Part shown: positions 11,650 to 40,623 of the stretch, piece after piece
How positions within the stretch are numbered: position 1 is the first letter of the stretch
How the letters are laid out: each line of letters opens with the position of its first letter
Assembly (NCBI GenBank): GCA_905250055.1
Contig: CAJNOF010000042.1
Span: 403,805-467,804 of the forward strand
Length of the DNA stretch: 64,000 nt
Direction of reading: 5' to 3'
Source of the DNA: Rotaria sp.
Lineage: Eukaryota
Notes under the pieces: model-generated
The model's database searches: none
What the model was told of the DNA's origin: nothing
The model's input: only the letters and a program-made list of their open reading frames with translations
Translations under genes and position numbers: made by a program

Positions 11650-11878
11650 TTCTATTGTAATGAATAGCTTCTGTTTTTTTTTCTTTTTCTTTTTTTGAAA
11701 ATAGCTGAATCAATAAATTTTACAATAGTTTTCGTTTTCTTTTTTTTGCATTTTGATAGCATGCTCCCTCTGTTGAAAATTTCTATTGATGAGAACTAAA
11801 AACCTATGTGTTTTATGTAGGTGTATGTGATGAGTAAATGTTATTGTTTCAATACAATATTGAAATTACATTAATAAG

Positions 11879-13188
11879 ATGAGTTATAACGTAGAACTAA
11901 TACCAATTTCTGAAGGTAATCGTATAACAGTAAAAAAAAATGAAAAAGTTATTATTGGACGTGGATCATCATTAGGTGTATGTTACAAAAAGATAATTGA
12001 TTTTTTATTGTTTACAAATTTTTTGAATTTTTTTTTTAAATAGTGTAATGATAAAAAAATTTCTCGTCAACATGCTGAATTATTACTTAAAAATGATGAA
12101 ACACTTTGGATTAAACCAATTCATACTAATCCAGTATTTTATCGCACTTTTCATGGTAAAACAATTCATTTGACTAAAGATATTGAACAAGAATTAAAAG
12201 ATGGTGATCAAATTGGTTTATTACCAACAAGTTTTTTCTTTCGTATTAGTTTTTCTATGAATACAAATAATAATAAAGACGATTTATCTACATCATCAAA
12301 TCAACAGTCACATTATTCAGTAAATAATATTGCGTCTGATAATCTAAAATCAACTAAAATATCATCTCAAGATACTTTATCTAAAATAAAAAGTCCTGAT
12401 GTTGAACCAAAACCATACATTTCAGATATTGATGATTCTACTTCTTCTTCTATAAAAAATCAAGTATATTTTTATGATATTAATATGTTGTACTTTATGA
12501 ATGTAGTTTATAGAATGAATATGAATCAGTTGATTCAAATAATAAATCACGTATATTACCAACATGGATGATAGCATCAACAAAGACTACATCCAATTCT
12601 TCCTGTCTACATGATTCATCATCTAGTGATCGTCCTGCTGTTAAACGGCAATGTAAGTACATATTTATTATAATGAGTCTATCTCAAATAAATTCTCAAC
12701 AGTGAATTCAGAAGAAGATAACAAAAGTAATACAAATGATTTATCAAATACGTCTGGTAAATTCTATTATATCTTGTTTATCTATTTTTCCTTTTTGTTC
12801 TTTATTTGTTTTTTTAGACGCATCAGTTACAAAGTCAAGTAAATCATCCGTAATAAAAAGCTTTGATAGTGATAGTAGTGATGGATTTGATTCTGTTACT
12901 ACAAAAAAAAGTATTCATAAATATTTATTATTGATTATTGACTACAGTTTGAATTTAGTTAAATCAAATGATAAACGTCGTCCAGTTTGTTCATATGGTG
13001 CATCATGTTATCGAAAAAATCCAACGCATCGTACTGAACAATCGCATCCAGGTGATTCTGATTATGAGGATGAAAAACAAACGAATAATGATAGTAAAGA
13101 TGATAATGATATTGATAAACCGATATGTCCTTATGGTAAATCTTGTTATCGACAAAATCCTCAACATAAACGTGACTACACGCATTAA
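11879..13188 (+). CDS. APLF: APLF-like NHEJ scaffold: FHA domain + Ku-binding motif + two PBZ (PAR-binding) zinc fingers, 5 exons
   Basis: Exons 11879-11977, 12044-12463, 12514-12652, 12703-12756, 12818-13188 (GT..AG introns 50-66 nt, phases consistent). N-terminal FHA-like domain: MSYNVELIPISEGNRITVKKNEKVIIGRGSSLG|CNDKKISRQHAELLLKNDETLWIKPIHTNPVFY...DGDQIGLL. Exon 3 carries the Ku-binding motif NKSRILPTWM. The C-terminus has two C-x5-C-x6-H-x5-H PBZ fingers: PVCSYGASCYRKNPTHRTEQSHP and PICPYGKSCYRQNPQHKRDYTH. This domain combination is diagnostic for APLF. Confidence 0.8.
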
Positions 13189-17446: not shown

Positions 17447-17959
17447 AATTGTAGAACTCGAAGATTTAGTTCGAATGAAAAACTAACTTTTTCAATAGCT
17501 ATATTTACTTCCAATATTGTACTGTTCAACTGTTGGATATAATAGTTGCAATCGTTCCTCATATTTTCTATAGAAATTGACCAGAGAACTATCATAGACG
17601 AATAATCTGAAGTCTATATCAGGTTTCAATTTTTTTAAATATTTCATAATATGAATTACCAAACAGTTTTTTTTATGATATTCAGATAAAAAGATTACTA
17701 TACGATGTATTCTCATTTACATGTAACAAGATGCCTAATGCATCGACTAGAGTCGAGCTGATCATGATTATCGATTAGTTCTTAAATTCTGAACACATTG
17801 TTATATGATCTAAAGAGTTAAGCAAATTATGCTGGTCTTTTTTTCTAGCATGTTTTATTTCGAATCTATTTGTTTGATTCTAGATTTTTTGTCTAAGTTT
17901 CACAGACATATCATCTGTTTCTATTTCTCCAGAAGACTGTTTAATATCTGTGATCAATT

Positions 17960-20901
17960 ATGACTACATTACCATCTGCTGCGTCAACCGATTCGACTTT
18001 GCCCATCGATGACAATAGTGAATTGGGTGATTTTCATACTGTAATGAAAGAAAATCCGTCGACTAATATTAATCAATACAATCGAGAACCAACTTCTTGC
18101 TCACTTGAACATGATCTACATCGATTAGACTTAAGCGATAGTCCAAAAGTAGTAGAAAATATAAAAGTGAAACGATCGAATTCTTTACCGACGATTTTGT
18201 TTGATCCGATCGATAGATCTTTATCGCCATTCAACCATCAGAGATTACCTGTAAACTATATAAATGATGATCATGGTGTAAAATTTTATTTGTTTCCATC
18301 ATCGACCCATAATGTGGTAGCTGGTCAACCATCACCTCTTTGTGATCAATGCTTGCCGAGAGAAGATAAGCAACCAATCGAATCTCAGTCACTCATCGTC
18401 TTGAATCAGATAAAGTATTTACGGAGCGCCTTATGAGAAAAGAACAACAGGTTGCTTGTTTTTTGTTTTTCAGAGTTTCCCAACCACTTCTGACTACTAA
18501 ATCAGTGGGAACGTTCTCTGGATCCTGTAGCAAAGCTTCCATCTCATATGGAGTCGATTGGAGCGAACGTGCTCATCCCACATCTCACTGTTGGTTTCCC
18601 TTCATATGCAAGGATCCATCGACGGATCAATTATGTGCCCACGTATCTTGTATAGGTGTAAAACCAAGCTATCAATCTGAATTTGTACAATGTGGATCAT
18701 GTGATTTGGTTGCACATTCGTATCACTTGAAAGATTCACGGGTAATCGAAGCCAATTTTCTTCCACCCTGTCGTCCGTCCTTTGTCGACAACACAACACT
18801 TGGAAATTCACTTCCCGAGAGCGAAAATAATCCATCGAAATACGATGAACATTTTTGGTCTCATGTGAGCGTACTTCCGAAACCGTGCATGTACTGCCAA
18901 CAGATATCAACGACAAAAACCCTATTCAAAAGTAGAAGTGGTCGATTATTGGGAGCGTCTGCTTTAGATATCATCGGTCAGGCCACGTCGGCTATGAATT
19001 CTATATCGAGCAATTGCAGTTTAAATGTATCTGGATCTTCTGAAGGCCTCGCTTGTTTATGGTGTTTACGAAGCTATCATCGGCCGTGTTGGAAAAGTCT
19101 TGCTGATGAAGATAAAAATACTCAATGTGACTATGGAATATTTCGGTAAGTTTTTAATGATGATTATGCAGGTCAAATAAAAAGAAACCTTGCATGTTTG
19201 TAATGCCTACGAGAATGCTCGGTCATACTTCTTGTTAGATTTATCATTATCTTGACACTTTTCTACTACTGTTCATTAATGATTATTACTTAAGTTTGAT
19301 TTGATCGTAGAATCAATGGATATTGAAGCATGCTTACAAATATGCAGAGTTCGAGATATATTCAAAAGAAAATCCTTTCCGTTTTTTGAGTTCATCGAGA
19401 AATTGTTTAGAATGCTTTGATCGTTGTCTTCCTTCAACTCTAATCACTCGTTGAGATCAATATGTTGATTTTCTTCGATAGAAATATTATTGTTCGACCG
19501 CAGTGGCTCAGTCGTTCCAGCGAATCTTCAACTGATTTCAAAGCTCGTTTGTCTTTGCATGCGACTAATAGCAACTTTGAATCAAACTCTTTTCCGTATA
19601 CACCCGTTATTGTATTCATAAATAAACGTTCTGGTGGCCAACAAGGAGAAAAAATTTATCGGAAACTATTACGAAAACTCAATCCACGTCAAGTATTTCT
19701 TCTAGAAGACAATGCTACAATCACACATGCTCTTAACATCTACTCGTCGCTACCTAATATCCGTTTTTGCGTATGTGGAGGTGATGGAACCGTGGGTTGG
19801 ATTCTTGGCCGTCTAGCTGAGGCTTATCCATCGAAAAATAATCCACCAGTAAGCATTTGTCCTTTAGGAACGGGTAATGATCTTTCACGCGTATTAGCTT
19901 GGGGCGAACAATACGATTCAAAACGTCTTTTTGATATGCTCGTACAAATTCCACAAGCTAAAGTAGTTGCACTCGACCGTTGGGAAGTTCAGCTTGAACA
20001 ACTCGACGTAACAACATTGTCTTCACAGACACAAGCAAAGCAAAAGAAAGGATTTCAAATCGGTCATCCATTTCAAGTGCTAGTCAAGCATCCGAAATTT
20101 GTTCGCGAAAAAAAGCAAGTCTCCTATGAACATCATCAGAAGTTACCAAATACACACTTTATCAATTACATGAGTTTCGGTTTAGACGCAGCCATTACAC
20201 TAGATTTTCATGATAAACGCACACGTGATCCATCGAAATTTTCGTCACCATGGAAGAATAAGCTCATGTATGTAAATAGAAGTTGCAAATATTTCAGTGA
20301 TTTTGCTCAAGCAAATATGTGGAATCTTGGCTCTTATATTCGTTTGATATGCGATGGTCGTGATCTAACTAATGCTATAGGTGATTGCCATACATTAGTC
20401 GTACTTAACATTCCAGGTTATGCAGCCGGTACGAATCCGTGGGGAAAATCTTCATCGACAAACTCAGTTTTCTTCTATGGTGATCAATCGTCGATCTTTC
20501 AAAGAGATAATGATTCTGCCGATGCCAAGGTAATAAGTGCAGTTAATGTATTCGGTTCATTAGCTGCTACACGCGAAGCTATTAAATCTGTTACTTTGAA
20601 TGAAGATGATATGCATCAAATGGCTAGCTCATCGACAACAGCAATCTCAACTGTTTGTGTCGAACAACAAGATTTTGGCGATCAAAAACTCGAAATTGTT
20701 GGCTTGAATACTACACATATGGCTACAATTCATATGGGTTTTACTGGCAATCGGATCACTCAATGTAATCAATTGCGAATAGAACTGCGCAGTCCAATGA
20801 CGGCACAAATGGATGGTGAACCATTCTATCTTCCTGCTTCAGTAGCTGTCAACATTAATCATTCTGGCCAAGTACTTGTGTTAAAAAATCAGAACGAATA
20901 G
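17960..20901 (+). CDS. Diacylglycerol kinase with two C1 (phorbol-ester/DAG-type) zinc fingers + DAGK catalytic + accessory domains; 3 exons
   Basis: Exons 17960-18414, 18474-19145, 19482-20901 (introns 59 and 336 nt, GT..AG, phases 2/2). Exon 2 has two Cys/His-rich C1 fingers (HCWFPFICKD...CAHVSC...CGSCDLVAHSYH and HFWSHVSVLPKPCMYCQQ...LACLWCLRSYHRPCW). Exon 3 has the DAGKc signature PVIVFINKRSGGQQG...LNPRQVFLL...FCVCGGDGTVGWILG...PPVSICPLGTGNDLSRVLAWG and the accessory domain. No EF-hand, PH, SAM or ankyrin domain was seen, so a simple (type III/epsilon-like) architecture is the best guess. The ~150-aa N-terminal exon-1 region is unassigned. Confidence 0.85.
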
Positions 20902-21974: not shown

Positions 21975-24900
21975 TCAAAAACGAGTAACTAGTGGTGGTG
22001 TTGGAAATGGGACTGATATTGGTGGTTTGAATTTTTCATCCAATAATTTTTTCTTTTCTTGATATTCAAGTATTGCCAATTGTTTCCAACTATCTATAAG
22101 TATTTGTGCACTGTATTCGATCTCTTCTTGATCTTTCATGGAATCGAGTAAGCCACGATGTCTACCCATGCACATAACAAGTATGATCACAACTTTGCTT
22201 GGTGAGCTGAGAACAGAGACAAGACTCGGCATTCCTTTCGCCAATCCCATTGAAAGGCCACATCCACCAAAAGCACTCATCACTTCGAATATCACACGGA
22301 GTACTGTAATAGTTGGATCATTAGGTGTCATACGAGGCGATTCAAAACTGCAAATAAGAAAGATAAAAATAAATAGCCATGCTCGAGTCGATATAAGAAG
22401 ACTGAAGAAACTGAGAATGACATGTCGACAGAAAATGATCAAAAAGAGTTTCATACGAAGTAGAGATATATGAATATTGCTTTGATTGAATTCTTCATTT
22501 CGATTTCTTATATAACCCAGATCAGCGGATACAATACTCAAACGATGTTGATTTCGTTTGTCATTCAGTTCCTCAAGAGCTGCTTCAACACGATTGAGAG
22601 AAATCGTTGAAGCAAAATATCTATTTGCTTGAGCTTTAGTAATCGAGCCTTTTCGCAAAAGATAATTTTGCATTCGATTAAATGGTAAGAAAACTTTAAA
22701 GTTGGCATTTTGGCTACCATTCGATACGTTATTTTCTAATGTTTGTTGCGTTTGCAAAAGAATCCATTCCATTTCAAAGGGCGTTTCATCAATTGCACAC
22801 AACTAAAAAGGAGAAAATGGTTATGTGTTATGTGTCGGAAAAAATTGTCGTGACACTTCGAAAGAATAAAAATGTCAATGCAACAGGGTAGTTTCAATCG
22901 TGAAAAAGAACGAAATTTTCGCCTTATTCATTAGTACTATCAGGTTAAGTTTAACCCATCTGAGTACAAAGATCTATGAAAAATGACCAACAACTATACG
23001 TTCCTCTGCTGAAGAGCGAACTTATTCGAAGCTAACAAAGAATACAATTCAATAGAAAAATATTGACAGGCAAATTAAGGGTTGTTACTAATGTCGGATT
23101 TATTTTTAACAATAACAACGATCATTTTTTATGTGTAGAATTCATTATTTTCGAATAGTTTTCAGATTGATACTATTTTCGTTACTGATTGTCATTAGTT
23201 TATAGAGCAACTTCAAGTAAAACTAAACCAAATTTAGTACAAAATCGTCCTTTTCCTATGGAAGATTATCATTTTTTTTAATAAAATTCTGTTAAAATGG
23301 TGTCAAATAGATAATAAGATCATATGAAAATTCTCTAATGATTTCGATCCGTAAAAGTTCAACTGTAATTCATAATCATATTTGACAAAAGAACAGTAAA
23401 CGTACCATTTGAGGCTTGATACCCATCAAGAGAATAAAAATAATCAAAGTTCCCGCAGAAAGTACGCTTATATCGATTGTTGCATAACCTTTCACAACAA
23501 AAACAAAAATAAGTGTACATTTTTCCACTAAAATATACTAATCACTCAGTACCTCCAAAACGAGTGTTCACTGTCTGAAGCATAAATATCATGAATCGTT
23601 GACCTTGGCTATATATCACCAATGCATCGTTATGAAAATCGTTCACCAAACACACTGCTACACCAACTGAAATAATGAAAAAAAACAATAAGTTAAACTA
23701 TTCGACAATATGATCACTGACGTATCTGTAACAAAACGGTAATAGTAACATAGAGTCGTGTTTGAACAGATGGATATATCACAGTAGATAGCCGATGATT
23801 ATTCAATAAGATATAATCAAAATAGATCTTATGTCGCCAACTGAAAATAGTAATATTTTAATTAGCTATTTTAAAATTTAATGTGAAGGAGGAATCAGTA
23901 AAAATACTTACGGTACCATATATTTGAGTAATTCGACAATTCCATGAAGAATGGCCGGAAATAAAGATGTACCAGACATGACAATAAGCATGATGATTAT
24001 GTTCATGAAGACATCCGTGACAAAACGTGACATACCGCCTTTCCTAGAAACACTTTTCTTTTATACAAAAGATCTGTCAACAAGTATAAATTTCTGACAA
24101 AAAAATTATTCAAACTCTATCACTTTTGAAACTATGTATATAGACACATAGAATAAAATATTAAATACGATACCATAGTGAAAGGCCATTTTGATTGAAA
24201 CCGGTCAGAGTGATGACAATTGAAGCATAGAACGGATCCACTGTTCTGTTGTCTTGACGTAAAAATTGTGGATCATAATGATATTTAAGCCACATACTAA
24301 TGGTAAGAAATGAGATAAGATAAATAGCGAAACAAGTCGAAAGAATGAGAATAATTAGGATGATATATGCTGTAGTACGAAGATCTTTTGGACTAGGCAG
24401 TAATCGAAGACGTTGGTCCAATATGGGATCAGTAGAATTGATTCGAACAAGTTTTGTAATTGGTAAGCTATTGTCATTGATAGTCGATGAAAGTGTTTCT
24501 TCATCAGGTGTTATTTCGCGTTTGACTCGATAAATCTTGATGAAAATAGCAGGAAGTGTACTGACCGTAATGCCTGTATGATAAACACACAGAAAAATCA
24601 TAGATGATCTGTTTTGATTAAAAGTTTCGTTTCTTTTCTATCATTTTTGTCCTATTACCTGAAATTACAGTAAAAATAAGTAATACAATTTGTGATGCTA
24701 GACTGTATGATCCAAAATCGTAAGTTTCCAATCCACATGTAAATACACATGTTGCACTCGAAAACCAACAATCGAGATAGGATACACGTTGTTGTTCAAT
24801 GTTCCAAATGATGACGCCGCACAAAAGTGTATTGCAGAAAAATACCGATAGATGTATGTAAAAATAATGTCGCATACGCCATTCATAATTATCCCAAAAT

Positions 24901-25049
24901 TTTCTCCATTTTGAACACCAAATGCCTAATGGAATGACGGCATCAGCAGTAGCATTGATCATATTGATCTCTGCTTGAACCATACTGCGTTCAGTTTCAG
25001 TCACAGATGTAACCGATGGTTTTCGATCAAAGCCGAAATTATTCATCAT
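21975..25049 (-). CDS. TRK/HKT/TrkH-family K+(Na+) transporter, ~6 exons
   Basis: Exons (minus, approximate): 25049-24659 (MMNNFGFD...RHYFYIHLSVFF...YLDCWFSSATCVFTCGLETYDFG...QIVLLIFTVISG, the first M-P-M selectivity segment and the fungal TRK HYFYI motif); 24573-24176 (...STDPILDQRLRLL...ITLTGFNQNGLSL, the second pore loop); 24043-~23912 (KGGMSRFVTDVFMNIIIMLIVMSG...); ~23666-23553 (...QGQRFMIFMLQTVNTRFGG); 23488-23406 (GYATIDISVLSAGTLIIFILLMGIKPQM); 22802-21975 (...TVLRVIFEVMSAFGGCGLSMGLAKG...VVIILVMCMGRHRGL..., the last pore loop and the GRHRG motif typical of Trk/HKT). Introns 80-600 nt, GT..AG. One junction (exon 3/4) has an unresolved phase. Confidence 0.75.
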
Positions 25050-28980: not shown

Positions 28981-28994
28981 GAGAGGGGGGGGGG
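28981..28994. repeat. G homopolymer (~11 G) inside a GA-rich patch
   Basis: gagagggggggggggagctgagagtgaagg at about 28975-29005. Isolated in a ~30% GC intergenic region, ~660 bp upstream of the cupin gene. Confidence 0.5.
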
Positions 28995-29652
28995 GAGCTG
29001 AGAGTGAAGGTAACATTCCAAAGAATACACTAAACATCACCGCTCCCTTTCTGCATTATCAAGATTTTCTTCTGAATTCTTCTGTGTGTTTAAGGAGTAA
29101 AAGATCTTGAAACACACAGAGAAGAAGTTTTATTCTTTCTTTCTATATCTTTTGTTTGTTTGTTTGTTCTGATATGTGTGCTGTTGGGTTATTAACTTTG
29201 GCAACATATAGAGGCAAACGTTGTTGCGATAAGCAAATTTCTACGAAACTAGCAGAGTCAAGCAGAAATATAATTGTTGCAGCTACTTTCATTTCTGAAA
29301 GGAAATCTGTAGAAGAAAAATAAGGTAGAACTTAACTAATTATCTTATGCAGTGAAATTGTGACCTAACAAGTTTAAACAAAAAAAGAAGGTTTCAGTCA
29401 TCAAAATTGCATAATAACCTAAGCAAAAGGTGACAATAATCAGTATCTATTGCATAGTTATGTTACTTCATTTATTATAGCTTTACTTTTTTATATTATC
29501 TTCTCCATATCGCATATTTTGTCTCTTTTTCATATTCTGCAATAAAGAAGTATATCAGAAAAGCAATATCAGAATCCTCGAGCTTCATTTTCTTTTAGAC
29601 AAAATGCTAAATATACGTTAAAATACGTTTCATCAGTATTTGATTATCAGTC

Positions 29653-30127
29653 ATGGATGAACATAAACCTAAACCTGTTTTTCGCTGTGTTGACGATTGT
29701 GAAACTCAAGAATGGAATCATCCAAAGCGTGGTTATGTGAAGTGGTGGGAACTAATCAATGGTGACATAACATCAACAACAGGGCTCACTATGGGTATTG
29801 CAGAAGTTCCAGTGGGAGCTCCTCCTACGAAACGTGGTCATACACACGATGCAGAGGAAGTGTACGTTGTTTATTCAGTATCATTTTAAAGTCTATTTTG
29901 TTTTTCTTGTTCGTCCAGATATTATTTTTTAAGTGGAACAGGAAGAGTTCACATCGATGGTATGGAAACAGATGTCAAACCGGGCACATCAGTATGGATA
30001 CCTGCCAATGCTGAACATTTTTGCTACAATACCGGCACAGAACCGCTAAAACTCTTATTTGTATTCGCGCGCGATAAATTCAGTGATGTACATTACTGCT
30101 TTCCAGCAGAAACGGAATTTGAGTCAT
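29653..30127 (+). CDS. Small single-domain cupin (RmlC-like/cupin_2 barrel), 2 exons
   Basis: Exon 1 (29653-~29877): ...VPVGAPPTKRGHTHDAEEVYVVYS, cupin motif 1 (G-x5-H-x-H-x3-E-x6-G). Exon 2 (~29935-30127): GTGRVHIDGMETDVKPGTSVWIPANAEHFCYNTGTEPLKLLFVFARDKF...ETEFES then stop, cupin motif 2 (G-x5-P-x-G-x2-H-x3-N). The ~57-nt intervening segment contains a stop. The exact splice junction could not be resolved from the sequence as read. Confidence 0.55.
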
Positions 30128-30670
30128 AAACATATTTCTTCTAAATTTATTCCATGTTCAAAAGCAATAAAAATTCACGCTTTTTTTAAATCTGAATAGA
30201 GTGATCATTTCTCCGTCGAAAGTGCGCTGAAACTCAAGAAAGAGTCGAAGTTTTCATGAAAATTATGAGAACAGATTGCAATGTAGCACAAATTTACGTA
30301 AGAATTTGAAATGTCAGAATAAGTCTAATCGACAGTAATGGGTAAGCATTTGTTGAATGCTTCTTAATTGTGCTATACTTGAACTTCTAGGAAAGTTAAC
30401 ATAGGCAGACGCTACTTCGTCGATTGACGTATTCTTAGAAATTCAATTGTGCTTAGCATTTATCTGTCTTAACCTATAGAAAAAATTCAATTTAGTTGCT
30501 AAAGATTATGTTGAAGGCAACTTTCAATGATCAACAACATGCGTATGGGTTTTTTTTTATAAGTTTATCTTACTCTTATCTTGTTCTACCCTCTCGTTTT
30601 TTTTTCTTTACCTGATGAAAAAAAAATAACATTATGAAAGGATCAAAAAGCATTTCGTAAAATCATTGTA

Positions 30671-31858
30671 ATGAAAGCTGCTATCTATTCAAAGAATTCC
30701 ACCAATAGTGTGAGGCTCGCCACCGTTCCACGTCCAACACTAACAACAACAGTGTATGAGCCGACTTCCACTAACATAATCCGTTTTTGGTCTTTTCAAA
30801 TAATCAATCTTGTTTTCACTTGCATTAGTCATTTTATGTGCCTACTACGTTGGTTGTTTCCTAGTATTCCGGGTCCTTATGGTGAAGTGACTGACCGCCA
30901 GTGGGTACTATGCCGTGTATATTGCGGTGGCGTGAATCCGGTAGATGCAAAATTTCTTTATGGAGACAAATTGCCTCACTTCTGTTTACCTCTGGTGAAA
31001 TGGTTTGTTGAGAGCAGAATTTGCGGCATTGACTTCAGTGGTATAGTAGTCGAAGCTCCTCCAGGTTGTAAGTATACAGTGGGCGACGCAGTTTTTGGTA
31101 CAATTCCTCCGTTTTGCGGCTCGTTCGCAGAGTATGTAAGGGCACCAACTGATTTCATCTGCCACAAACCCAATAACAAATCGTTTGCCGAAGCATGTGC
31201 GATACCTTTAGTTGGTTTGACGGCTCTGCAAGCTTTCGAGGACAATAATCTAATGGTTGGACAGCATGTTCTGGTTCTGGGCGCTTCGGGTGGAACTGGA
31301 CATGTTGCCGTACAAATAGCCAAGATCAAAGGCGCAAGAGTGACTGCAGTAACTAGTTCACGTAATGCAGATTTCGTTAAAGGTCTTGGCGCAGACGAAA
31401 TTCTCTTCTACGATCTATCTACAAATATATTAGAGGATTTACATGTTGTTACATTACGTCATGGTCCATTTGACTTAGTTTTTGACTCTGTTTCCTCCCA
31501 TGATCTGCGAGATGCAAATTTTGCTTATGAAACTCGAATTCGTAATACGAAACCCAAATTAGTTACTGGAATGTATATTTTAATTGGAGGTATCGTAACG
31601 GACTGGGTTCTTGCACACATCAAACGATTTTTTGGTATTGACTGGTTCGCAAATGGCAGACAGCTATTCTGGGTCAGATTTCCGGATAGCACTAGGAGGC
31701 TCGAATCATTGCGTCAATTTTGTGAGGCCAACCAGCTCAAGGTAGCAATAGCCAATCGTATGCCATTTACAGAAGAAGGTATTCAGGAAGCATTTCGTTT
31801 GCAAATGAATCGTCGTACTGTAGGTAAAATCATTATTGAAATGATTTCCGAAAAGTAA
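30671..31858 (+). CDS. Medium-chain dehydrogenase/reductase (zinc-binding ADH / quinone oxidoreductase / RTN4IP1-like), 2 exons
   Basis: Exon 1 30671-30753 (MKAAIYSKNSTNSVRLATVPRPTLTTT), exon 2 30865-31858. The 111-nt intron gtatgag...cctag is AT-rich, in-frame and stop-free, which is why the track shows one 395-aa ORF. MDR hallmarks: GEVTDRQWVLCRVYCGGVNPVDAKF (GroES-like N-domain), NAD(P) fold VLVLGASGGTGHVAVQIAKIKGARVTAVTSS, C-terminal ...RRTVGKIIIEM. Coding GC is visibly higher than the rest of the window. Confidence 0.8.
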   Translation: MKAAIYSKNSTNSVRLATVPRPTLTTTVYEPTSTNIIRFWSFQIINLVFTCISHFMCLLRWLFPSIPGPYGEVTDRQWVLCRVYCGGVNPVDAKFLYGDKLPHFCLPLVKWFVESRICGIDFSGIVVEAPPGCKYTVGDAVFGTIPPFCGSFAEYVRAPTDFICHKPNNKSFAEACAIPLVGLTALQAFEDNNLMVGQHVLVLGASGGTGHVAVQIAKIKGARVTAVTSSRNADFVKGLGADEILFYDLSTNILEDLHVVTLRHGPFDLVFDSVSSHDLRDANFAYETRIRNTKPKLVTGMYILIGGIVTDWVLAHIKRFFGIDWFANGRQLFWVRFPDSTRRLESLRQFCEANQLKVAIANRMPFTEEGIQEAFRLQMNRRTVGKIIIEMISEK

Positions 31859-32629
31859 TAAAATAACTCTAATTGAAAATATTCTATATTGGCATAGTCA
31901 AGCATAGCGATCATACGAGAAGGCAATGATCAGACAAGGAGAGAATGAATACTAGGCCAATAAAGAGGAAGAAATTAAAATAAAGATGATATAATTCGTT
32001 ATGCCACTGAATTTGATTGATCACTCAAAACTGTATTTTCAATCGAATATGTTTTCAAAAACCTCTAACAAAACAAAATATGAGTGTGGGTGCGAGGTTG
32101 GTGTGAATGTGTGATGGTGGGGGTGAATATGAGTGTAAATGTCGAACATGAGTACACCTACACACCCACACCCCAGCAATATTCAGTGCACTTTGGAAAA
32201 CCATGTGTTCAAAGGTCAGGCTTTTTCTTTGAAAGATTTATTATTATGCTATCAGATGTAAAATTTGATTCTTAACAAAACTGTGTAAAGATGAAATTCA
32301 ACAATGAAAATATTTAGGTTGCCTCAAATTGAAATAACAAAAACATCATAAATTTACTAGAGAAGGACTTTTATCGTTTATGTTACATTTTTGTACTTCG
32401 AAAACTGTTTCTTCTAAGGTTCTCTTCTAAAATTCTGAAACACTCAATCAATAATGCAGAATTTTACAAAAAAGTTGATGAAATGCTTAAACTTTTACCA
32501 AAACTTTCATCAAAACATTGTCATTAGTTTTCGTTTTATTGATCGGTGTAGTTGGACAACTAAGTAAGTTCAGATTAGCACAATTTCTCGTGGAACATGC
32601 GCACTTTTATTTACTTAGATTAACATTAT

Positions 32630-32760
32630 TCGATATTTGATGTCATCGCTTGGATTCTATCAAGATAATTGTCTTATTTTATTTTATTAAGTAGAAATGT
32701 ATGAAAATCAATAAAAATTTTCATCGTACTCAAAATGATTATGCAACGCGAGTTAAGTAT
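32630..32760. repeat. Dispersed ~100-bp repeat, copy A
   Basis: ...ttgtcttattttattttattaagtagaaatgtatgaaaatcaataaaaattttcatcgtactcaaaatgattatg... This is ~75% identical to 37030-37135 (...tagtcttattttatcttcgtaacctgaaatgtatgaaaaccaataaaagtttacatcatactcaaatgatcatg...). Confidence 0.4.
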
Positions 32761-35220
32761 CTTATTCAAATATCGATATTTCATATGAAAAGAAGTTCAG
32801 CATATGGTTATAATTGGTTGAGGTAATCATTCTCAATAAAAAGATGAGTATCAATGGAAAATGATCCAATTGGCATCATGTTAGACTCTATAATATATTC
32901 AGTACAATGAATGAGTTAAATGAAGAACTGATTATGAGTTTTCAATCTAGAGAGATGAAACTTTTCAGCCTTTATTTTTCTAAAATTCCATCTCTTAGCT
33001 ACATATTTGTGATTAAGTTAATAATATACGATCAAATGATACTTCAAGAGGGTGTGATATATTATCAGAAAATTTCATCGTTAAATGTTGAGTCATAGTG
33101 AAACTGGACGTATAACAAAGTGAAAAGGTCAATTTTTGTCGGACAGAAAGCTTTTAGACGGTCTTTTAAATTGATTTCTGTCTGGAATTGTTCGAAAGAA
33201 CTGAAGCCATATAAATAGAACGAGCAAAACACGAGCTATCTTTTGATAAATAAACCTTTCTATAAATAAATAACTATGAATTGAAATAAATATTTCATAA
33301 AAGACAACTGACACTGTTCCTGTAAACTCTTTATCATTTCTATATGCGGAATATTCGTCTCGGAAATATCATATTTGAAAGAGCATGGGACGTTGAATAT
33401 TTAGCAGAAAATGAGGTTTCAAAATCAAAAAACGTCTTTGCCCGAAACTTAAAATCATCTCTAATCTTATACAACGTCCGACGCACTTTCGAATATGATA
33501 GTTGGAAAACTCTTCCCATGCATGTTGGAATCTATAATGTTGTATCACATTCAGTCAATAGCATGAAAAATCTACGTGCTTTAACCATCTTCTCTCCAGA
33601 TGATTCATGAAGGATGAAACTTGATTGTGGTCGGCTTCCATCAGAAGAAAACATGCATGTCAAACGGCTGCAGCTACATTTGCCATCTACATGTACAACA
33701 TCAATTATTAAATTACTTCTGAATAAGATTTGATTGTAGATGCATTAATGAAAACAAAAATTATATTTATAATTTTTGATTAGGTTTTGCATAAATGATC
33801 GAGATTCGAAACCAGTTTGTTTCCATGTTTTTCGATATTCTAAAATCTCCAGGTATTTTTGAATGAGACGTCTCTTAATTGGCATACAAGATACATTATG
33901 TATCTAAATAAAAATAATCATTTTATATCTTTCTTTGTCGAAGTGTTTCAGATATCTCTAGTATATAGCTCCAAAAACGATTGATTTCGCATAAACTCGG
34001 TGTCATTGGACAATCTACCATGTTCGAATAGAAATAGTATAGAAAATCTAGGCTTTTTTATATATTAAATGTAGGGAATGGCATTGTCATCTATTTGTTG
34101 GCATGCTACTTTTTATCGTAACTCTCTTGAATGTTATATTCTATTAGACACAGGTTATTGGCCTAAGATTACTCTTACTATGAACAAAAATGATACACAC
34201 CTAGTGTGCAAGTTAATTAAGGAGAAGATGAAGATGAATTAATGATTTCATCGTGCATTGTGATCTATTATTCTATACCAATCTGTCATGTATTCAGTGA
34301 ATGTGAAGCATATTGAGTAGTGCGATGAGATTGAACTTACTCACTTTCTGTATATATTTTCTCTTTTGTGCGTAACTGACAACGAATCTCTCAAACAAAA
34401 AAAGAACTTTTTTATCGATGAGAAGAGTTCATGTTTGTTCTTTTATCTATTTTCAGTGAGACTACTCCATTAATAAATATTGTCATTTTTTTAAAAATTC
34501 ACGTTGGTAACATATCAATCCATTCTTCTTGTAGGAATTTTATGAAAGGTAATATTTGACTGTAGGACATCCAGTTTTAATAGTTTTCGAAAGTCTCAAA
34601 TATTCACTTTTACCCAACATAAACAAATTTAACAACACTACTTTTTACTTGATATTGACACTGAAGAAAATCTATTCATTAAATTCTCACGTGCTATAGC
34701 TCATCCTATGCATTATTCTACAAACTTTGGACACAATATTTTATTTGAAAATCATAACGTAAAATTAACCCTATCAGTGTTCCTCTATGAAAGAGACCTA
34801 CCGTCAACAATGCTCCACTCACTATTATGCACAAGTCTTGACAATGATCACTTCTACAAAAATGTATCCGAGCAGTTATCAAAGAGATCATTGGCTCTCA
34901 TAAATATGATCACCGTTGATATGTGGTTGAAGAACGCATCGATTCCTGAATGAAGAAAGTTTCTAATCTCATACTAATCTTCAACAAATACACTACAGCG
35001 ATTCAATATTCGAGTGTTCAATAACGACATTTCGGCTTCAAAAATTTGAATTATATCGTATGCTGGAAATCATAAATTAGTCTGTGGCTGTGGACTAAAA
35101 CAAAATGTACTCTAAGAAGCTAACCCACAATCTGTATGTGATCAAATCACATGCATTAAAAGATTTATGAAAAGTTAATTTGGATCACTTATCTGACAAC
35201 CATGCATTAAGACTAGTTAT

Positions 35221-35600
35221 TGCTTTCCTACAGCTATAGTTGTAACCCATTTCAATATGACACGCTACCGATACATATGTTGACACAAAATGACACAAAA
35301 ATTACTCAAGTCTTAGAATAACGAAATATTTCGTTTACAATTTTTAAAGCATTTTGACATATAATGACACGCTGGCATACATGTGTCCAAGGGTGACAAT
35401 ACTTCATGTGTCAAAACGTTTAAAAAACCAAAATGACACATGAAGTACTGTCACGCTTTGACACATGTTATACCAGCGTGTCATTATGTGTCAAAATTTT
35501 TTAAATCTTGTAAACGAAATATTTCGTTATTCTAAGACTTGAGTAATTTTTGTGTCACTTTATGTCGACACATGTGTCGGTAGCGTGTCATTTTAAAATG
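35221..35600. repeat. Near-perfect long inverted repeat (foldback element), arms ~180 bp
   Basis: 35226-35420 (...gacacgctaccgatacatatgttgacac...ttactcaagtcttagaataacgaaatatttcgtttacaatttttaaagcattttgacatataatgacacgctgg...) is mirrored as its reverse complement at 35430-35600 (...ccagcgtgtcattatgtgtcaaaattttttaaatcttgtaaacgaaatatttcgttattctaagacttgagtaa...gtgtcgacacatgtgtcggtagcgtgtca). Internal tgacac/gtgtca sub-palindromes. No ORF. Confidence 0.65.
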
Positions 35601-37020
35601 GGAAGCTGACATATATGTTTCGATATATATGATCGGCTCATAACACTATCCTCATTCTGTCTATTATATTTCTAGGAGTCAAACTGAGAAGTTGGTTTAT
35701 TTATCTTGGCATATAATTATTTTATCAGCTGTTAAATATTGGCTTTCGTAAACAGAGGCATAAAATGTAAAGTATAAGAAAAATGAAAGAAGTTGTTATT
35801 AGAATTAAAACAAACATAAACCAAAAAACAACAACAAGATAAATGCATAAATCAATAGCTAGAGCTATGAAGAACATGATCATCCATGCAGGAAACAATA
35901 GAATTGATAAACTACTCTCTCGACGATGACGATTGCTTAGCTGATAGTGTCGAAAATAAGACCAAACTGGAGTAGAAAGTTGTTTATGTGTTCTATTAAT
36001 TTTATGAATGAGTCGATCACGGAAATTCATTATATTCAAACACTATGTTGTTATGTGTACAATTGATCAGCAATGTTCCTATGAAAAAAATCAAAATTAA
36101 AAGTGAGCACGGATATATTTTGTGTATTATTCTGAAAAAGGAAATTGTCTTGGCTTCTTTCTAGTGCAAAATACACTTTTTTAGCAAGAATATCAGAATT
36201 GTTTTCAGATCCTGAAGACGAACTAGACAAAGATGGGTGGGTAATTCTAAATTTCCTCTTTGTCAGTACCCACATCCATGACAGAGAAGGTAGTCTTGCC
36301 ATTTAGCAAGGTTTTCAAATCACTCAGTAGTCTTTATTCTAGTTAGAAAATCCGATAGAGATGAATGAATCTTCTGTTATTCGCTGACCACCAAGATATC
36401 GTATTTCGTATCATAGTTCACACTCGATTCGAGTTCGAATCCGGTCTAGTTAGTTTTCAAGAACGTTGGATAACATAAAGAATATAAAAGTAAAGATTCC
36501 GTAAAATATGGACGTTGACCCGAATTCTTATATCAAAAGATTAAAGCACAAAAGTTTTACCCATTGCAGCCATATAATAGAAAAAAAAACACGCACTTCA
36601 AAACTGCATCAATAAGAAAAGCAACAGTCACTCTTGAGAGCATGCTGCCATAAAAATATTTTCATCGAAAGAAAGAAAAAACTCTTGAGTACAAAATGCA
36701 TTTCAACATAAAACAAAAAGTTCACCATATAAAACAAATCAACAAATGTGAAAAAAATGTGCTTAGTTATATTTGTCGACGATAGGAGCCTGTGCTGTAA
36801 AAACATATCTTTGAAAGGAAAAAAGCATGGATGTTATTTGGGGTAGATGTGAATAGGACAAGATGAAACTAGGATAAAGCTTGAAATTCTCTATCGCTAG
36901 GTATAAGAGCGAATTTTCTTTCAGGATAAAGAAACGAGAGAAAAATACACTGAGATTTAGTGCAATGTCTCTTGAAACATCTGTATTTTTAATCAATTAG
37001 ATAAATATTATACAAAATTT

Positions 37021-37140
37021 GATATCATTGTTTGAATTACATCATGACAATAGTCTTATTTTATCTTCGTAACCTGAAATGTATGAAAACCAATAAAAGT
37101 TTACATCATACTCAAATGATCATGAATGTGGGTGTAGTGT
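37021..37140. repeat. Dispersed ~100-bp repeat, copy B (see 32630-32760)
   Basis: Shares tcttattttat...gaaatgtatgaaaa(c/t)caataaaa...catc(a/g)tactcaaa(a)tgat(c/t)atg with copy A. It is immediately followed by a GT-rich/CA-rich hairpin (37121-37195). Confidence 0.4.
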
Positions 37141-37599
37141 GTGAATAAAGAAAAGATGCAAACACCGATAATCACACTTACACTTCACCTTATTGAATGA
37201 GGAGGATCACTGAGATTATCTCATTCTGGTACAGGAACAAACACATCGTTATTAAAGTTCATATCTTTTACTAGAACACTCCAGCAGTGGACAATTGGAC
37301 CAGTCGATGAGAGAAGTTGTTCCACTTTATGGAGAAACGCTTCACCCCACATAAAGTCATACATATCAAGGAGAAATGGAAACAAAGAATAAAAAAATAT
37401 CTATATACATATAATCTATTATACGATATTGTACATATACTTGAATTTAAAACACTAGGAATCTGCACCAATCACAAATATTCAGATTCATGACGACTAA
37501 TTATATCTCTACTGTGTAAAATATATTTTCACCAGATAATCGTTAAAAAAAATCTCGTCTATATCAGTTCGAAGATCTTCTTCAGATAAAAAAAAATTA

Positions 37600-38330
37600 C
37601 TGTATTCTCTTTGAATATTTTCCATTTCTTCTTATTAGTAGAGAAATAAATGAAGCACTCCGCAGAAATAGTTTAATCATTTCTGCTACTGAAAATCGAT
37701 ATCTGCTACAAGATCTTTTTAAGATAAACTCTAAGTCTTTCAGACTTCTTGTGAATGGATACATAATCCAGCACTTCTTCTTTACATATAACCATTTCTA
37801 CTAAAAACACCCCTTAAGATGAAAAAAGTCAAATGATCCATTTGTATTCAAGTCCTTTCTACTTCTGTTTGTGACTGGAGATGTGAATGAAATATTTCTC
37901 CTGAAAAAATAACCATTTCAACTAGAAAAAATCCATTTCTACTAGAAACAGCCCTTAAGATAAAAAAATAAAAGGATCCATTTCTCTCTCACCCTCTTCG
38001 ACTTCTTCTAGTGAATGAAAATATGGATGAAGTACTTGCCTGAAAATATAATGATTTTATAATAGTAAAAATGCATTTCTACTAGAAACATCCCTTAAGA
38101 TGGAAAAAGTAAAATGATTCATTTTCCTCCAAGTCATTTAGACTTCGGCTAGTGAATGGAGATGTGGATGAAGCATTTCTCATTAAAAAATAACGATTTC
38201 TAATAGAAAAAATCCATTTCTACTAGAAACAGCGGTTAACATGAAAAAAGTCAAATGATCCATTTCTCTGTAAGTCTTTCCGACTTCTGTTTTTGTAAAT
38301 GGAGACATCGATGGAGTAGTTCTGTTTGTT
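37600..38330. repeat. Tandem repeat array, unit ~140 bp, ~5 copies (satellite-like)
   Basis: The recurrent unit ...ccatttctactagaaaca(g/t)cccttaagat(g/a)aaaaaagt(c/a)aaatgatccatttc...gacttc(t/g)...tagtgaatggagatgtg(g/a)atgaag(c/t)atttctc...aaaaaataac(c/g)atttc(a/t)a(c/t)tagaaaaaatc begins near 37790, 37935, 38075 and 38215. More diverged partial copies lie from ~37600. Confidence 0.7.
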
Positions 38331-38975
38331 ATTTTTCGTTTTCTCTTGTAGTGATGTGTTCGAATAAAGGTAGTGTGTTTGTGAAAAAGCGTTTCTTTCT
38401 GACTTTATGTGATTGAAGCATTTATGCTTGAAGTGGAACAGTTTCTCTTTGATAGGGGGATATGGTCCAGTCCTGGAATACTCGTGAGTGCGTAAGTTAT
38501 ACTTTGTGTCATACTTCAATCAAAGATTTTTAAATTCTTGGAAAACCTAAAGCATATTATTCGGCTATCAGTTGTCCATTGTACACAACAATTATGGCTT
38601 GTGTACGAGTAAATTTAATTCAATCTCATTTAAAATAAACACATCATGGTATACTATCTGGATTCATATCGGTGAGTATTGCTACATTGAATATTTGATG
38701 ACGAATATCTTCTTCCATTAATTCATTGCTTGCTGTTATACTGAGTCTGTTCCGATAGATAGATTAAAAATAGCTAATGTTCACATGAAGTTCTTTGCAT
38801 AATCACGAGAGTATCATTTTTGCATTTGCCATTAATTAAATATAATCAATGTGTCACTCACAAGTTAGTAGAATAAAAAAAAAAACAGTTTGACACATCA
38901 CGCAATTATTACTTAAACAGCGGGTGGTATTTTTTGCTTTCCATCTTCTTTTTTTTGACATCACTGTCGAATACA

Positions 38976-39938
38976 ATGTCAACCAGTATCACTTCTACAT
39001 TGGCAATATTTACATTTGAATCAAATCGCTATTTGTCCATGTTTATTCTTTTATTCGGTACTATTGGGAATGTTTTAAATTTGTTAATATTTTATCAACC
39101 TAAACATCGTACAAATCCGTGTGCTGTCTATTTTTTCTATGCATCAATTGCTGGCTTAATTGCTCTTTATTCAGGTTTACTGAGTCGATTTTTTGTCGGT
39201 TTCTCACTTGATGCATCTGCAACAAATGCTATAATATGTAAATTACGCGCATTCATTGTTTGGGTATCAACAACGGCTTCATCCTGGTTTTTGACTTATG
39301 CCACTATTGATAGGTATTTTATAAGTTGTCGTGATGTACAACGTCGGAGTCTAAGCAATCTTCGTTTTACACGGAGATTAATGATCATTACAGTTGTTGG
39401 TGGATCATTAATATTTGCCGAAACTTTCTATTGCTATATACCAAATCTTCGCAATTCTCCATTGACATGCTATGGTCAAAATATGATATGTCGTTTATAC
39501 AATGAAATTGCTTCAGCAGTAGTATTCGTTTTTATACCATCAACAATTATGTTAATATTTGGGTATGCAACTGTACAAAATGTGAGAAAATTACTTTATC
39601 CCATAGTATCGATGGTTAATTCACGTGGAATAGCAATAACAATGAAAAAAACAGATCGACAATTGATTCAAATGTTAATTGTTCAAATTATTCTATTGAC
39701 TATATTCAATATTCCATTGGCTATTCAACGTCTATATTTGACATCAACATTAAATATACAAAAAAGTTTGTTAAGATCTACAATTGAAAATCTTTGTTTT
39801 CAAGTATTTTACCTTCTAAGTTTTATGAGTTTTGGAATGCCATTCTATATTTACACATTAACCGGAACAGTATTTAGACATGACTGTATAAACTTAATTA
39901 GATCCGTTTATCGAAAAGTGAAAATAGCTGTATTTTAA
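38976..39938 (+). CDS. Class A (rhodopsin-like) G-protein-coupled receptor, intronless, ~320 aa
   Basis: ATG at 38976, in-frame within ORF 38934..39938. Seven hydrophobic segments. TM1 has GNVLNLLIF (conserved N1.50), the TM3 end has ATIDRYFIS (DRY motif), and TM7 has the NP/FY-like region (...FGMPFYIY). Short termini and no signal peptide suggest a peptide/amine-type orphan receptor. Confidence 0.8.
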   Translation: MSTSITSTLAIFTFESNRYLSMFILLFGTIGNVLNLLIFYQPKHRTNPCAVYFFYASIAGLIALYSGLLSRFFVGFSLDASATNAIICKLRAFIVWVSTTASSWFLTYATIDRYFISCRDVQRRSLSNLRFTRRLMIITVVGGSLIFAETFYCYIPNLRNSPLTCYGQNMICRLYNEIASAVVFVFIPSTIMLIFGYATVQNVRKLLYPIVSMVNSRGIAITMKKTDRQLIQMLIVQIILLTIFNIPLAIQRLYLTSTLNIQKSLLRSTIENLCFQVFYLLSFMSFGMPFYIYTLTGTVFRHDCINLIRSVYRKVKIAVF

Positions 39939-40623
39939 AAATCAACAAATAATTGTATTAATAACTCTCGTAAAAACATGCTCGATAAACAATGTTAATG
40001 TATATATTCATAGCAAGCAAAATAATCTTTTCTGTTTTTCATCTGTAATGTAACAAGAGTTTTCATGGGCGATTGAACAACTACAGTGTAATTTCACATT
40101 TTAATCTCGTATGAATTGTACTGAAAGCTTTTTCATTCTAGTCATCACTGCATACATACTGTAAATAAATATTACTATTATTGTGGTGTGAAAGTTGATC
40201 TTGTTATTATATTTTGTCAAATTTTATTGATAAAAATTCTATCAACAAAATAAATATTGATATATTTTCAGGTCAAACAATCTTATCAACATAGTTCAAT
40301 ATCTTATAAGATCTTGTAAAATTATATCTTCGATTTTTTTCTGGCTAAAATAACTTTGTATGGCCGCATTTCAATTTATGGAAAAGAAGTGTATGAGTAT
40401 ACAGTGTGGCTTTTCTCTTCTTTCATGTCCAAACCTACATCCACACCCTCGCATATTTATGTTCTATTTTCAGTAATAATTGGTAATGGCCTTAATGATT
40501 TTCGATGAAAATCTCTTTATTGCAGTCGACAAGTAAATAATGTTAGAAAACTTCACGATTAGAATAATAAAAATGAAAAGTAAAATTATCAAGAAAGAAT
40601 AAATATCACTCAACTCTTATTTC

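Follow-up and report, generated by a model that had tools for sequence, protein, structure and literature searches.

Two neighbouring genes in a bdelloid rotifer encode proteins of a kind more familiar from prokaryotes, and this raises three questions: whether the genes are foreign, whether they arrived together, and what they might do in an animal. The genes lie on the forward strand of a 64,000-nt stretch of the Rotaria sp. genome (assembly GCA_905250055.1, contig CAJNOF010000042.1, positions 403,805 to 467,804), which we call the window and number from its first letter. One gene (29653–30129) encodes a single-domain cupin and the other (30671–31858) encodes an oxidoreductase from the superfamily of medium-chain dehydrogenases/reductases (MDR). 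A reading made from the sequence alone had proposed that this is a horizontally acquired pair, since domesticated by intron gain and still marked by a high GC content. We find that both genes are real. Homology and synteny support a foreign origin, whereas the compositional signature and the intron gain in the MDR gene do not hold. Overall, we think it probable that the locus holds a foreign module of two genes, acquired long ago and since domesticated, with a predicted lyase/reductase function.

Evidence for a microbial origin of both genes

We searched 5.8 billion proteins, about a quarter of which carry names, with the cupin sequence. The 49 relatives found by the single-sequence search are from bdelloids (Rotaria spp. 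and Didymodactylos), from Ilumatobacteraceae, or are unnamed metagenome proteins. A profile search gave 2104 relatives, and the best 120 of these fall into the same three classes: none came from a EukProt or MMETSP source and none carried the name of a non-bdelloid eukaryote. The closest non-bdelloid cupins are 61–64% identical to the rotifer protein. The contigs of the bacterial relatives that we inspected are dense and typically bacterial, with GC contents of 61–67%.

For the MDR protein, bdelloid orthologues from Adineta and Rotaria are 68–78% identical, and the next matches are bacterial and protist proteins, with no named non-bdelloid animal among the top 120. Anaerolineae proteins match at about 61–67% identity (479–498 bits). 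Over the core of the protein, identity is 66–67% to the Anaerolineae proteins versus 48–60% to the protist ones (50–56% for Syssomonas). We also scanned prokaryotes (one genome per species, 185,579 species) with two short peptide patterns, and only two Anaerolineae metagenome-assembled genomes (MAGs) gave matches at 61–62% identity; all other matches were at 41% or below. Like the bacterial proteins, the rotifer MDR starts directly at the first beta-strand, with no N-terminal presequence. So, the taxonomic breakdown that had been suggested as a check came out in favour of the proposal, with bacterial or unnamed metagenome relatives of the cupin outside the bdelloids and an MDR that is closest to Anaerolineae.

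Two other assignments of the MDR gene were considered and rejected. The alternative raised in the sequence-only reading was a native orthologue of the mitochondrial reductase RTN4IP1, but the human protein matches at only 22% identity and 90.8 bits, as against 479–498 bits for Anaerolineae, and the rotifer protein has no presequence. The protein is not a PIG3-type quinone oxidoreductase either (TIGR02824, 82.8 bits against a cut-off of 296.8).

In an earlier study, foreign genes in bdelloids were recognised by a horizontal gene transfer (HGT) index hU, which is the non-metazoan minus the metazoan bit score, of at least 30, together with linkage to host genes (PMC3499245). Both genes have an index far above 30: the MDR protein scores 498 bits against its best non-metazoan match (P0017) and less than 207 bits against any named non-bdelloid animal, and the cupin scores 184 bits with no animal match at all. 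In neighbour-joining trees with bootstrapping, the bdelloid clades are resolved and their sister groups are not. The bdelloid cupins form one clade (92–95%) and so do the bdelloid MDRs (89%), which group, with 44% support, with Anaerolineae-type bacteria that carry both genes in an operon. The sister of the cupin clade is an operon-containing group in a tree of 47 taxa (46%) and another bacterial group in a tree of 128 taxa (31%).

These comparisons, together with the synteny described below and not the base composition, support the view that both genes are foreign (microbial), old, and domesticated. They were most likely acquired in a bdelloid ancestor that preceded the split of Didymodactylos, Adineta, and Rotaria. 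The literature provides ample evidence of HGT into bdelloids (PMC3499245, PMC4632278, PMC5916493, PMC11258130). The pair resembles known bdelloid HGT genes in its non-metazoan best matches, its presence across genera, its intron gain (for the cupin), and its host-like composition. It differs from them in that its two genes have counterparts which form an operon in bacteria.

Structure of the two genes

The features of the locus, in window positions, are:

29653–29861, forward strand: cupin exon 1, with codons 1–69 and two bases of codon 70; holds the motif HxHx3ExY (H63, H65, E69)
29862–29918, forward strand: 57-nt intron of the cupin gene (GTACGT...CAG), which contains a TAA in frame; GC 0.30
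29919–30129, forward strand: cupin exon 2, stop codon included; holds Y71, H103 (in NAEH), and Y129
30130–30670: intergenic spacer between the cupin and MDR genes, 541 nt, GC 0.305
30671–31858, forward strand: MDR oxidoreductase gene, a single uninterrupted open reading frame (ORF) of 395 codons plus stop
30754–30864, forward strand: hydrophobic helix insertion in the MDR, 37 codons; an intron in the sequence-only model
30868–31398: local GC maximum of the window, GC 0.473, in the part of the MDR gene that encodes the GroES-like and Rossmann core

The single short intron that had been proposed for the cupin gene, with GT..AG ends and an in-frame stop, is borne out. Combining the ORFs with the splice model gives a protein of 139 amino acids. 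Removal of the intron restores the sequence EVYYFLSG, and the spliced protein aligns without gaps to its bacterial homologues. It matches Pfam Cupin_2 (PF07883) with 63 bits (cut-off 27.2, E = 2e-17), and its AlphaFold2 (AF2) model is an all-beta barrel with a mean confidence (pLDDT) of 92.7. The intron interrupts the same codon in Rotaria, Adineta vaga, a metagenomic bdelloid, and Didymodactylos carnosus. Because this position is kept while the sequence and length of the intron vary, alignment across these genomes identifies it as an old, genuine spliceosomal intron. Rotaria sp. Silwood1 also contains a second cupin copy, on a 1.87-Mb contig (P0124, 76% identity), which is probably a homoeologue. 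It carries the changes H63Y and H65N, which remove two of the four predicted metal ligands, and it could be inactive or have taken on a different function.

The MDR gene had likewise been given one intron, and a product of about 360 residues, but here the segment in question (30754–30864) is a conserved coding helix and the protein has 395 residues. The segment is in frame, free of stop codons, and exactly 111 nt long in Rotaria, A. vaga, and the metagenomic bdelloid; its differences at codon positions 1/2/3 number 12/5/13 relative to A. vaga and 8/4/16 relative to the metagenomic bdelloid, with a bias towards position 3; about 17 bdelloid sequences conserve it at the protein level; and in the AF2 model of the 395-residue protein (pLDDT 93.9) it appears as a confident helix at residues 36–62. 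It is for these reasons that we regard it as coding. The spliced model of 358 residues is ruled out by the alignments, the codon-position counts, and the AF2 model. So, of the two genes, only the cupin gained an intron. Over 331 codons of the MDR gene, substitutions at the three codon positions number 42, 24, and 132, and this bias towards position 3 implies purifying selection. The protein has Pfam domains above their cut-offs (ADH_N, which is GroES-like, and ADH_zinc_N with ADH_zinc_N_2) and a glycine-rich NADPH motif, GASGGTGH. The motifs that had been quoted for the two proteins are all present.

The helix has a Kyte-Doolittle mean of about 1.7 over 19 residues, and it may serve as a membrane anchor. 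Homologues of the insertion occur in transcriptome-derived proteins of the kinetoplastid Apiculatamorpha, of Syssomonas, of the chrysophyte Paraphysomonas, and of another protist in MMETSP (P0023, P0031/P0257, P0032, and P0042). The Anaerolineae MDRs have no such insertion. One more distant bacterial MDR (contig L160, 2495–3769) has a degenerate insertion at the site that matches the rotifer helix. The helix is thus a useful rare character for tracing the history of the family.

The pair in its genomic setting

The two genes are adjacent and on the same strand, as had been described, and in the chromosome-level assembly of A. vaga, as well as in two assemblies of Rotaria, they adjoin ordinary genes of animal type. 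Positions 29011–41859 of the window match scaffold CAJNYZ010000050.1 of Rotaria sp. Silwood1 at 99.2% identity over 12.85 kb, and in that scaffold the pair again lies upstream of a G-protein-coupled receptor (GPCR) gene (7tm_1) and a PARP4-like gene. In A. vaga, the cupin gene followed by the MDR gene is found on chromosome CP075493.1 at 17.19 of 18.15 Mb, which is 0.95 Mb from the end of the 18.1-Mb chromosome, and the same arrangement is found on a contig from a metagenomic bdelloid. The neighbours of the pair are eukaryotic: GPCR, PARP4-like, diacylglycerol kinase (DAGK), and tryptophan 2,3-dioxygenase (TDO) genes. So, at the level of assemblies, the contiguity that the sequence-only reading had wanted checked is there. 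The spacer between the two genes is 163 nt in A. vaga versus 541 nt in the window, and these are the extremes among the bdelloids.

The match to the Silwood1 scaffold ends at 29011. The window has a run of G at 28985–28995, and the scaffold has an N gap at the corresponding place (L007, ~7730–7763). PIG-U, PP2C, Alba, and ParB_N genes lie upstream of this gap in the scaffold and are missing from the window. Because of the gap and the poly-G run, we do not treat the mismatch as biological: the idea of a haplotype breakpoint at 29011 was dropped, and the mismatch is probably a scaffolding join instead of a haplotype difference.

Base composition

Much of the initial case for a foreign origin rested on GC content. 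In a scan of the 64 kb with windows of 531 nt (mean 0.314, standard deviation 0.041), the GC content of 30870–31400 is 0.47, and the peak of 0.473 is indeed the maximum of the window. However, the statement that every other gene has 30–35% GC was too strong: DAGK exons have 39–42% GC and the runner-up windows reach 0.441 and 0.439, the latter within the DAGK gene. That gene also has a single exon of 485 codons (19444–20898, forward strand, GC 0.39), so long exons with about 40% GC are not unique to the cupin and MDR pair. Within the peak, the GC contents at the first, second, and third codon positions are 0.59, 0.45, and 0.37. Because the excess sits in positions 1 and 2, it reflects the amino-acid content of the protein.

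The GC contents at third codon positions (GC3) of the genes in the window (SDR, short-chain dehydrogenase/reductase; GST, glutathione S-transferase) are:

MDR: 0.347
TDO: 0.291
DAGK: 0.290
cupin: 0.286
TrkH-like: 0.276
SDR: 0.268
PARP4-like: 0.230
GPCR: 0.227
GST: 0.137
FHA-PBZ: 0.119
HGSNAT-like: 0.088

The sequence-only reading had named GC3 values like those of other genes as grounds for giving up a foreign origin. The native genes range from 0.088 to 0.291; the cupin, at 0.286, does not stand out from them, and the MDR, at 0.347, does so marginally. However, GC3 is not a suitable yardstick for an ancient transfer, and silent sites at or near host values, as seen in this pair, are what an old transfer should lead to. 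We conclude that composition is neither proof nor refutation of a foreign origin. Silent-site GC also has a roughly three-fold spread among the native genes, from 0.09–0.14 for the GST, HGSNAT-like, and FHA-PBZ genes (6678–13185) to 0.29 for DAGK (17954–20898) and TDO (62274–63852), so local composition is very heterogeneous in the genome of Rotaria sp.

A DddK-like active site in the cupin

The best sequence match of the cupin in the PDB is DddK, a lyase of dimethylsulfoniopropionate (DMSP), with E = 4e-18 and 37% identity over 119 residues, near full length. Pairwise, the two proteins are 35–37% identical (E = 2e-23), and the bacterial relatives of the cupin are equally far from DddK (35–36%). 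When the AF2 model is compared with folds in the PDB, structures of DddK take the first six places (TM scores of about 0.70–0.77), and generic cupins follow at about 20% identity. In DddK, the metal is bound by His56, His58, Glu62, and His96, Tyr64 is the catalytic base, and Tyr122 holds the carboxylate of the substrate (PMC10686828). These residues align with identical ones in the rotifer cupin: H63, H65, E69, H103, Y71, and Y129. Across 56 members of the family, conservation at the catalytic positions is complete or at least 90%. HxHx3ExY, with a conserved histidine in a second motif, is the signature of the Cupin-DLL superfamily (10.1101/161257), and the rotifer protein has both parts (H63-T-H65-D-A-E-E69-V-Y71 and N-A-E-H103). 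By sequence and model, then, the cupin is a bacterial-type, predicted metal-dependent member of Cupin-DLL, and DddK is its closest solved relative.

The cupin shares with DddK of Pelagibacter ubique (PDB 5TFZ, 5TG0, and 6A53–6A55) a single domain of about 130–140 residues, the four metal ligands, the positions of the catalytic Tyr64 and the carboxylate-binding Tyr122, and the HxHx3ExY motif. In contrast to DddK, it is encoded in an animal nucleus by a gene with an intron, two of the five aromatic residues of the DddK substrate cage are replaced, its relatives are freshwater and soil bacteria instead of SAR11, and we know it from its sequence and a model.

The MDR protein and a possible two-step reaction

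The best sequence and fold matches of the MDR in the PDB are RTN4IP1, the strawberry enone oxidoreductase, and the gamma-ketol (alkenal/one) reductase of Arabidopsis; 2-haloacrylate reductase also matches. We conclude from sequence and structural comparisons that this is a predicted zinc-free reductase of the enone/alkenal type and of non-animal origin. It has the GroES-like and Rossmann folds and the GxSGGxG NADPH motif of the zinc-free ene-reductases (5A3J, 4IDA, human RTN4IP1 2VN8, and Burkholderia 1WLY), to which it is 20–28% identical. Unlike all of these, it has the 37-residue hydrophobic helix, and it lacks a mitochondrial or plastid presequence.

Lyase and reductase genes of these two superfamilies are neighbours in some known DMSP pathways. 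In the acuR-acuI-dddL operon, an MDR reductase is encoded beside a cupin DMSP lyase (PMC3017554); acuI-like genes lie beside dddL in 4 of 15 genomes (10.1101/161257); and AcuI-type enzymes protect against acrylate (PMC3338564, PMC4029986). By analogy, we propose a two-step reaction. With the help of its metal and a tyrosine, the cupin would catalyse a beta-elimination on a propionate substituted at position 3 (as a model substrate, DMSP or a related onium compound), to give an acrylate-type alpha,beta-unsaturated acid. The MDR would then use NADPH to saturate the reactive double bond of this product or a derivative, for detoxification or salvage. We hold this coupling of a lyase to an ene-reductase as tentative, and slightly on the doubtful side of even.

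The comparison with acuR-acuI-dddL of Rhodobacter sphaeroides rests on two likenesses: the gene for an MDR-superfamily NADPH reductase lies directly upstream of the gene for a cupin lyase, in the same order as in the bacterial relatives described below, and the logic is the same, with a lyase that forms acrylate and a reductase that removes the toxic unsaturated product. The differences are that the reductase here is not of the AcuI/YhdH family, that the cupin is DddK-like and not DddL, that there is no acuR regulator, and that the rotifers have the two genes in the opposite order, each as a unit of its own.

A bacterial operon with both families

Four bacterial contigs carry an MDR gene followed directly by a gene for a cupin of the same family, 42–47% identical to the rotifer cupin. 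The contigs are:

L010/L014: Anaerolineales MAG; in L010, MDR at 8001–9071, then a Cupin_2 gene on the same strand at 9273–9722 (42% identity to the rotifer cupin, E = 2e-33)
L013: second Anaerolineae MAG
L077: metagenome contig from the Joint Genome Institute (JGI)
L160: more distant, GC-rich bacterial contig

L010, L013, and L077 are syntenic relatives, and L160 represents a second lineage (its MDR is 68% and its cupin 62–66% identical to theirs). The two ORFs overlap by 4 nt in L160, and the intergenic distances in these bacterial pairs range from −4 to about 200 nt. Elsewhere the linkage was not seen. We found no MDR neighbour for the closest bacterial cupins in the Ilumatobacteraceae contigs, L157, L158/L159, or L161, and no cupin beside the insertion-bearing non-bdelloid homologues of the MDR in L078, L092, or L136. 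A search of plasmids with the cupin gave only a 35% identical cupin on a marine Acuticoccus plasmid, with no MDR nearby.

Two other recurring neighbours were observed. In Ilumatobacteraceae (L001, 1215–2279) and in another bacterial lineage (L158, 3437–4489), the DddK-like cupin has a kinase gene of the APH/EcKL type one to four genes upstream, which hints at a different conserved cupin neighbourhood in those bacteria. An alpha/beta-hydrolase gene adjoins the MDR gene in L160 (1388–2254) and in the compact eukaryotic contig of P0029, which also encodes ribosomal protein L28e.

The likeliest history of the rotifer locus is that a bacterium with an MDR-cupin operon passed both genes together to a bdelloid ancestor. 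Afterwards, each gene would have obtained its own eukaryotic expression signals, the cupin gene would have gained its intron, and silent sites would have drifted to the composition of the host. We favour co-transfer because chance would hardly be expected to place side by side, in an animal, the two families that share an operon in the closest bacterial relatives of the MDR. Given what follows, our confidence that the genes moved as a unit is evenly balanced with our doubt.

Several observations tell against joint arrival or against the proposed chemistry. The gene order in the rotifers is cupin then MDR and not MDR then cupin as in the bacteria. The rotifer cupin is nearer (61–64%) to a group whose one inspected contig (L161) lacks an MDR neighbour, and the operon cupins (42–47%) fall in a different, weakly supported clade. 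The trees do not single out a donor: sister-group support is weak for both the cupin (31–46%) and the MDR (44%). The MDR insertion is common to protists, missing in Anaerolineae, and only degenerate in L160. The MDR is not a member of the AcuI/YhdH family (MDR012), with 54.1 bits for NF051456 (cut-off 440) and 69.5 bits for TIGR02823 (cut-off 297.25). DMSP is scarce in fresh water and soil, the main habitats of bdelloids and of the bacterial relatives. The aromatic cage that holds the dimethylsulfonium group in DddK consists of Tyr21, Trp26, Phe108, Trp110, and Phe117 (PMC10686828), and three of the five positions are kept in the rotifer cupin: W31 and F124 are retained and Trp110 is replaced by F117, which is still aromatic, while Phe108 is replaced by L115 and Tyr21 by R26. 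Because only three of these five aromatics are kept, the substrate may differ from DMSP. Finally, several Cupin-DLL enzymes are thought to be merely promiscuous DMSP lyases (10.1101/168930). We doubt that DMSP itself is the substrate of the cupin.

Alternative explanations

Bacterial contamination or a chimeric assembly would account for two prokaryote-like products in one place, and there is an N gap just upstream of the pair in one public scaffold, beside the poly-G run of the window. This explanation is effectively refuted: the position of the cupin's spliceosomal intron is conserved in three bdelloid genera, silent-site GC is that of the host while the bacterial relatives have 61–67% GC, the flanks are AT-rich rotifer DNA, and two assemblies show the pair contiguous with the GPCR and PARP4-like genes, while in A. 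vaga it is part of an 18-Mb chromosome. Another possibility is that only the cupin is foreign, and that the MDR is an old, vertically inherited eukaryotic gene (present in Syssomonas, kinetoplastids, chrysophytes, and algae) which was lost in most animals and came to lie beside the cupin secondarily. The family does occur in many microbial eukaryotes, including a holozoan transcriptome, the hydrophobic insertion is found in both bdelloids and protists, and the gene is intronless with a host-like GC3, so its composition gives no direct mark of a foreign origin. We consider vertical descent very unlikely, however, because the core of the protein is 66–67% identical to Anaerolineae as against 48–60% to any eukaryote (Syssomonas 50–56%), because the linkage of MDR and cupin genes in bacteria would be left unexplained, and because many independent losses would be needed, given that no named non-bdelloid animal is among the top 120 matches.

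It is also conceivable that both genes are foreign and were transferred independently: the cupin from an actinobacterial-type donor near the group with 61–64% identity, the MDR from another bacterium or a protist, with a shared integration hotspot or a later rearrangement to explain their adjacency. The nearest sampled relatives of the two proteins do differ, the bacterial operon has the opposite gene order, protists also have the MDR insertion, and clustering of foreign genes is a known feature of bdelloid genomes (PMC3499245, PMC11258130). But by our estimate the chance that the two families of this operon would be neighbours on the same strand is about 1 in 10^4 per given pair among tens of thousands of genes, the adjacency has been kept between Adineta and Rotaria, and the trees that would separate the donors have only 31–46% support. 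We judge two separate transfers unlikely. A slightly more credible alternative, though we still lean clearly away from it, is that the pair is foreign and the products do not act in one pathway, with the cupin being an isomerase, a dioxygenase, or a KdgF-like sugar-acid enzyme and the MDR being a general quinone or alkenal reductase for defence against oxidative stress. Generic cupins (TM1287, TM1459, and KdgF) also match the fold, the best matches of the MDR are broad-specificity reductases, the closest relatives of the cupin are often without an MDR neighbour, and the sulfonium pocket is only partly conserved. However, HxHx3ExY with both tyrosines is the signature of DddK and Cupin-DLL and is invariant across the family, DddK matches at 32–37% identity (E = 1e-10) versus about 20% (1e-7) for generic cupins, and the overlapping or nearly abutting genes in two bacterial lineages argue for functional coupling.

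Flanks and other genes of the window

The sequence-only reading had set the pair in an island between long gene-free stretches rich in repeats. Within this AT-rich window (mean GC 0.31), the flanks at 25.05–29.65 kb and 31.86–38.88 kb indeed contain no ORF of at least 90 codons with a family match, and scans of the window for tRNAs and Rfam families gave no match. Repeats, however, are few: a 141-nt tandem array with 3.5 copies at 37792–38289 (76% matches), a foldback at 35246–35602 with 134-nt arms that are 90% complementary and an 89-nt loop, and one 160-nt repeat pair. With repeats as modest as these, the idea of an island among repeat-rich deserts is weakly founded.

The other genes of the window are:

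764–1177, reverse strand: SDR
6.7–7.5 kb, reverse strand: GST
9.4–11.6 kb, forward strand: HGSNAT-like (label from the sequence-only reading; the exons have no Pfam match)
12.0–13.2 kb, forward strand: FHA+PBZ protein
17.9–20.9 kb, forward strand: DAGK
21975–25049, reverse strand: TrkH-family transporter, multi-exon (PF02386, 1e-13)
38.9–39.9 kb, forward strand: rhodopsin-type GPCR
49.5–56 kb, reverse strand: PARP4-like
62–63.9 kb, forward strand: TDO

The TrkH gene lies 4.6 kb upstream of the cupin gene. The TrkH family is known from bacteria, fungi, and plants rather than from animals. This may be a further foreign gene, which could enlarge the island. A search of PDB sequences with the upstream TrkH-like exon gave no match.

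Significance

Given the massive gene acquisition that is established for bdelloids, one more foreign pair is unsurprising in itself. The locus does offer a caution for scanning genomes, as its GC signal turned out to be amino-acid composition and its in-frame GT..AG segment turned out to be a coding helix. Our full-text literature searches found no paper that links DddK to rotifers or bdelloids to this cupin, and a keyword search of two bdelloid HGT papers gave no mention of cupins or operons.

If the two genes were transferred together, theirs would be one of a small number of candidate examples in which a functional unit the size of an operon moved into an animal and stayed linked. The acquisition of a bacterial operon by a eukaryote has been presented as noteworthy, for the siderophore operon of Wickerhamiella/Starmerella yeasts (10.1101/399394). 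There, as here, neighbouring and functionally linked bacterial genes stay neighbours in a eukaryote; here, there are only two genes, their order is permuted, the trees single out no donor, and the host is an animal. In any case, a DddK-like cupin with all of its predicted catalytic residues intact provides a concrete and cheap biochemical hypothesis, a lyase plus an ene-reductase, for an animal lineage.

In the most far-reaching version, which we regard as improbable, bdelloids would have a working two-gene bacterial operon that was acquired in one event and has been linked since before the sampled genera diverged, with a cupin that is a true Ddd-type lyase and a helix-anchored MDR that detoxifies its acrylate-type product. 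If this were true, the cupin would be the first Ddd-type lyase of DMSP (or a related onium-propionate) in an animal, and bdelloids could release dimethyl sulfide and process acrylate from their algal or bacterial food.

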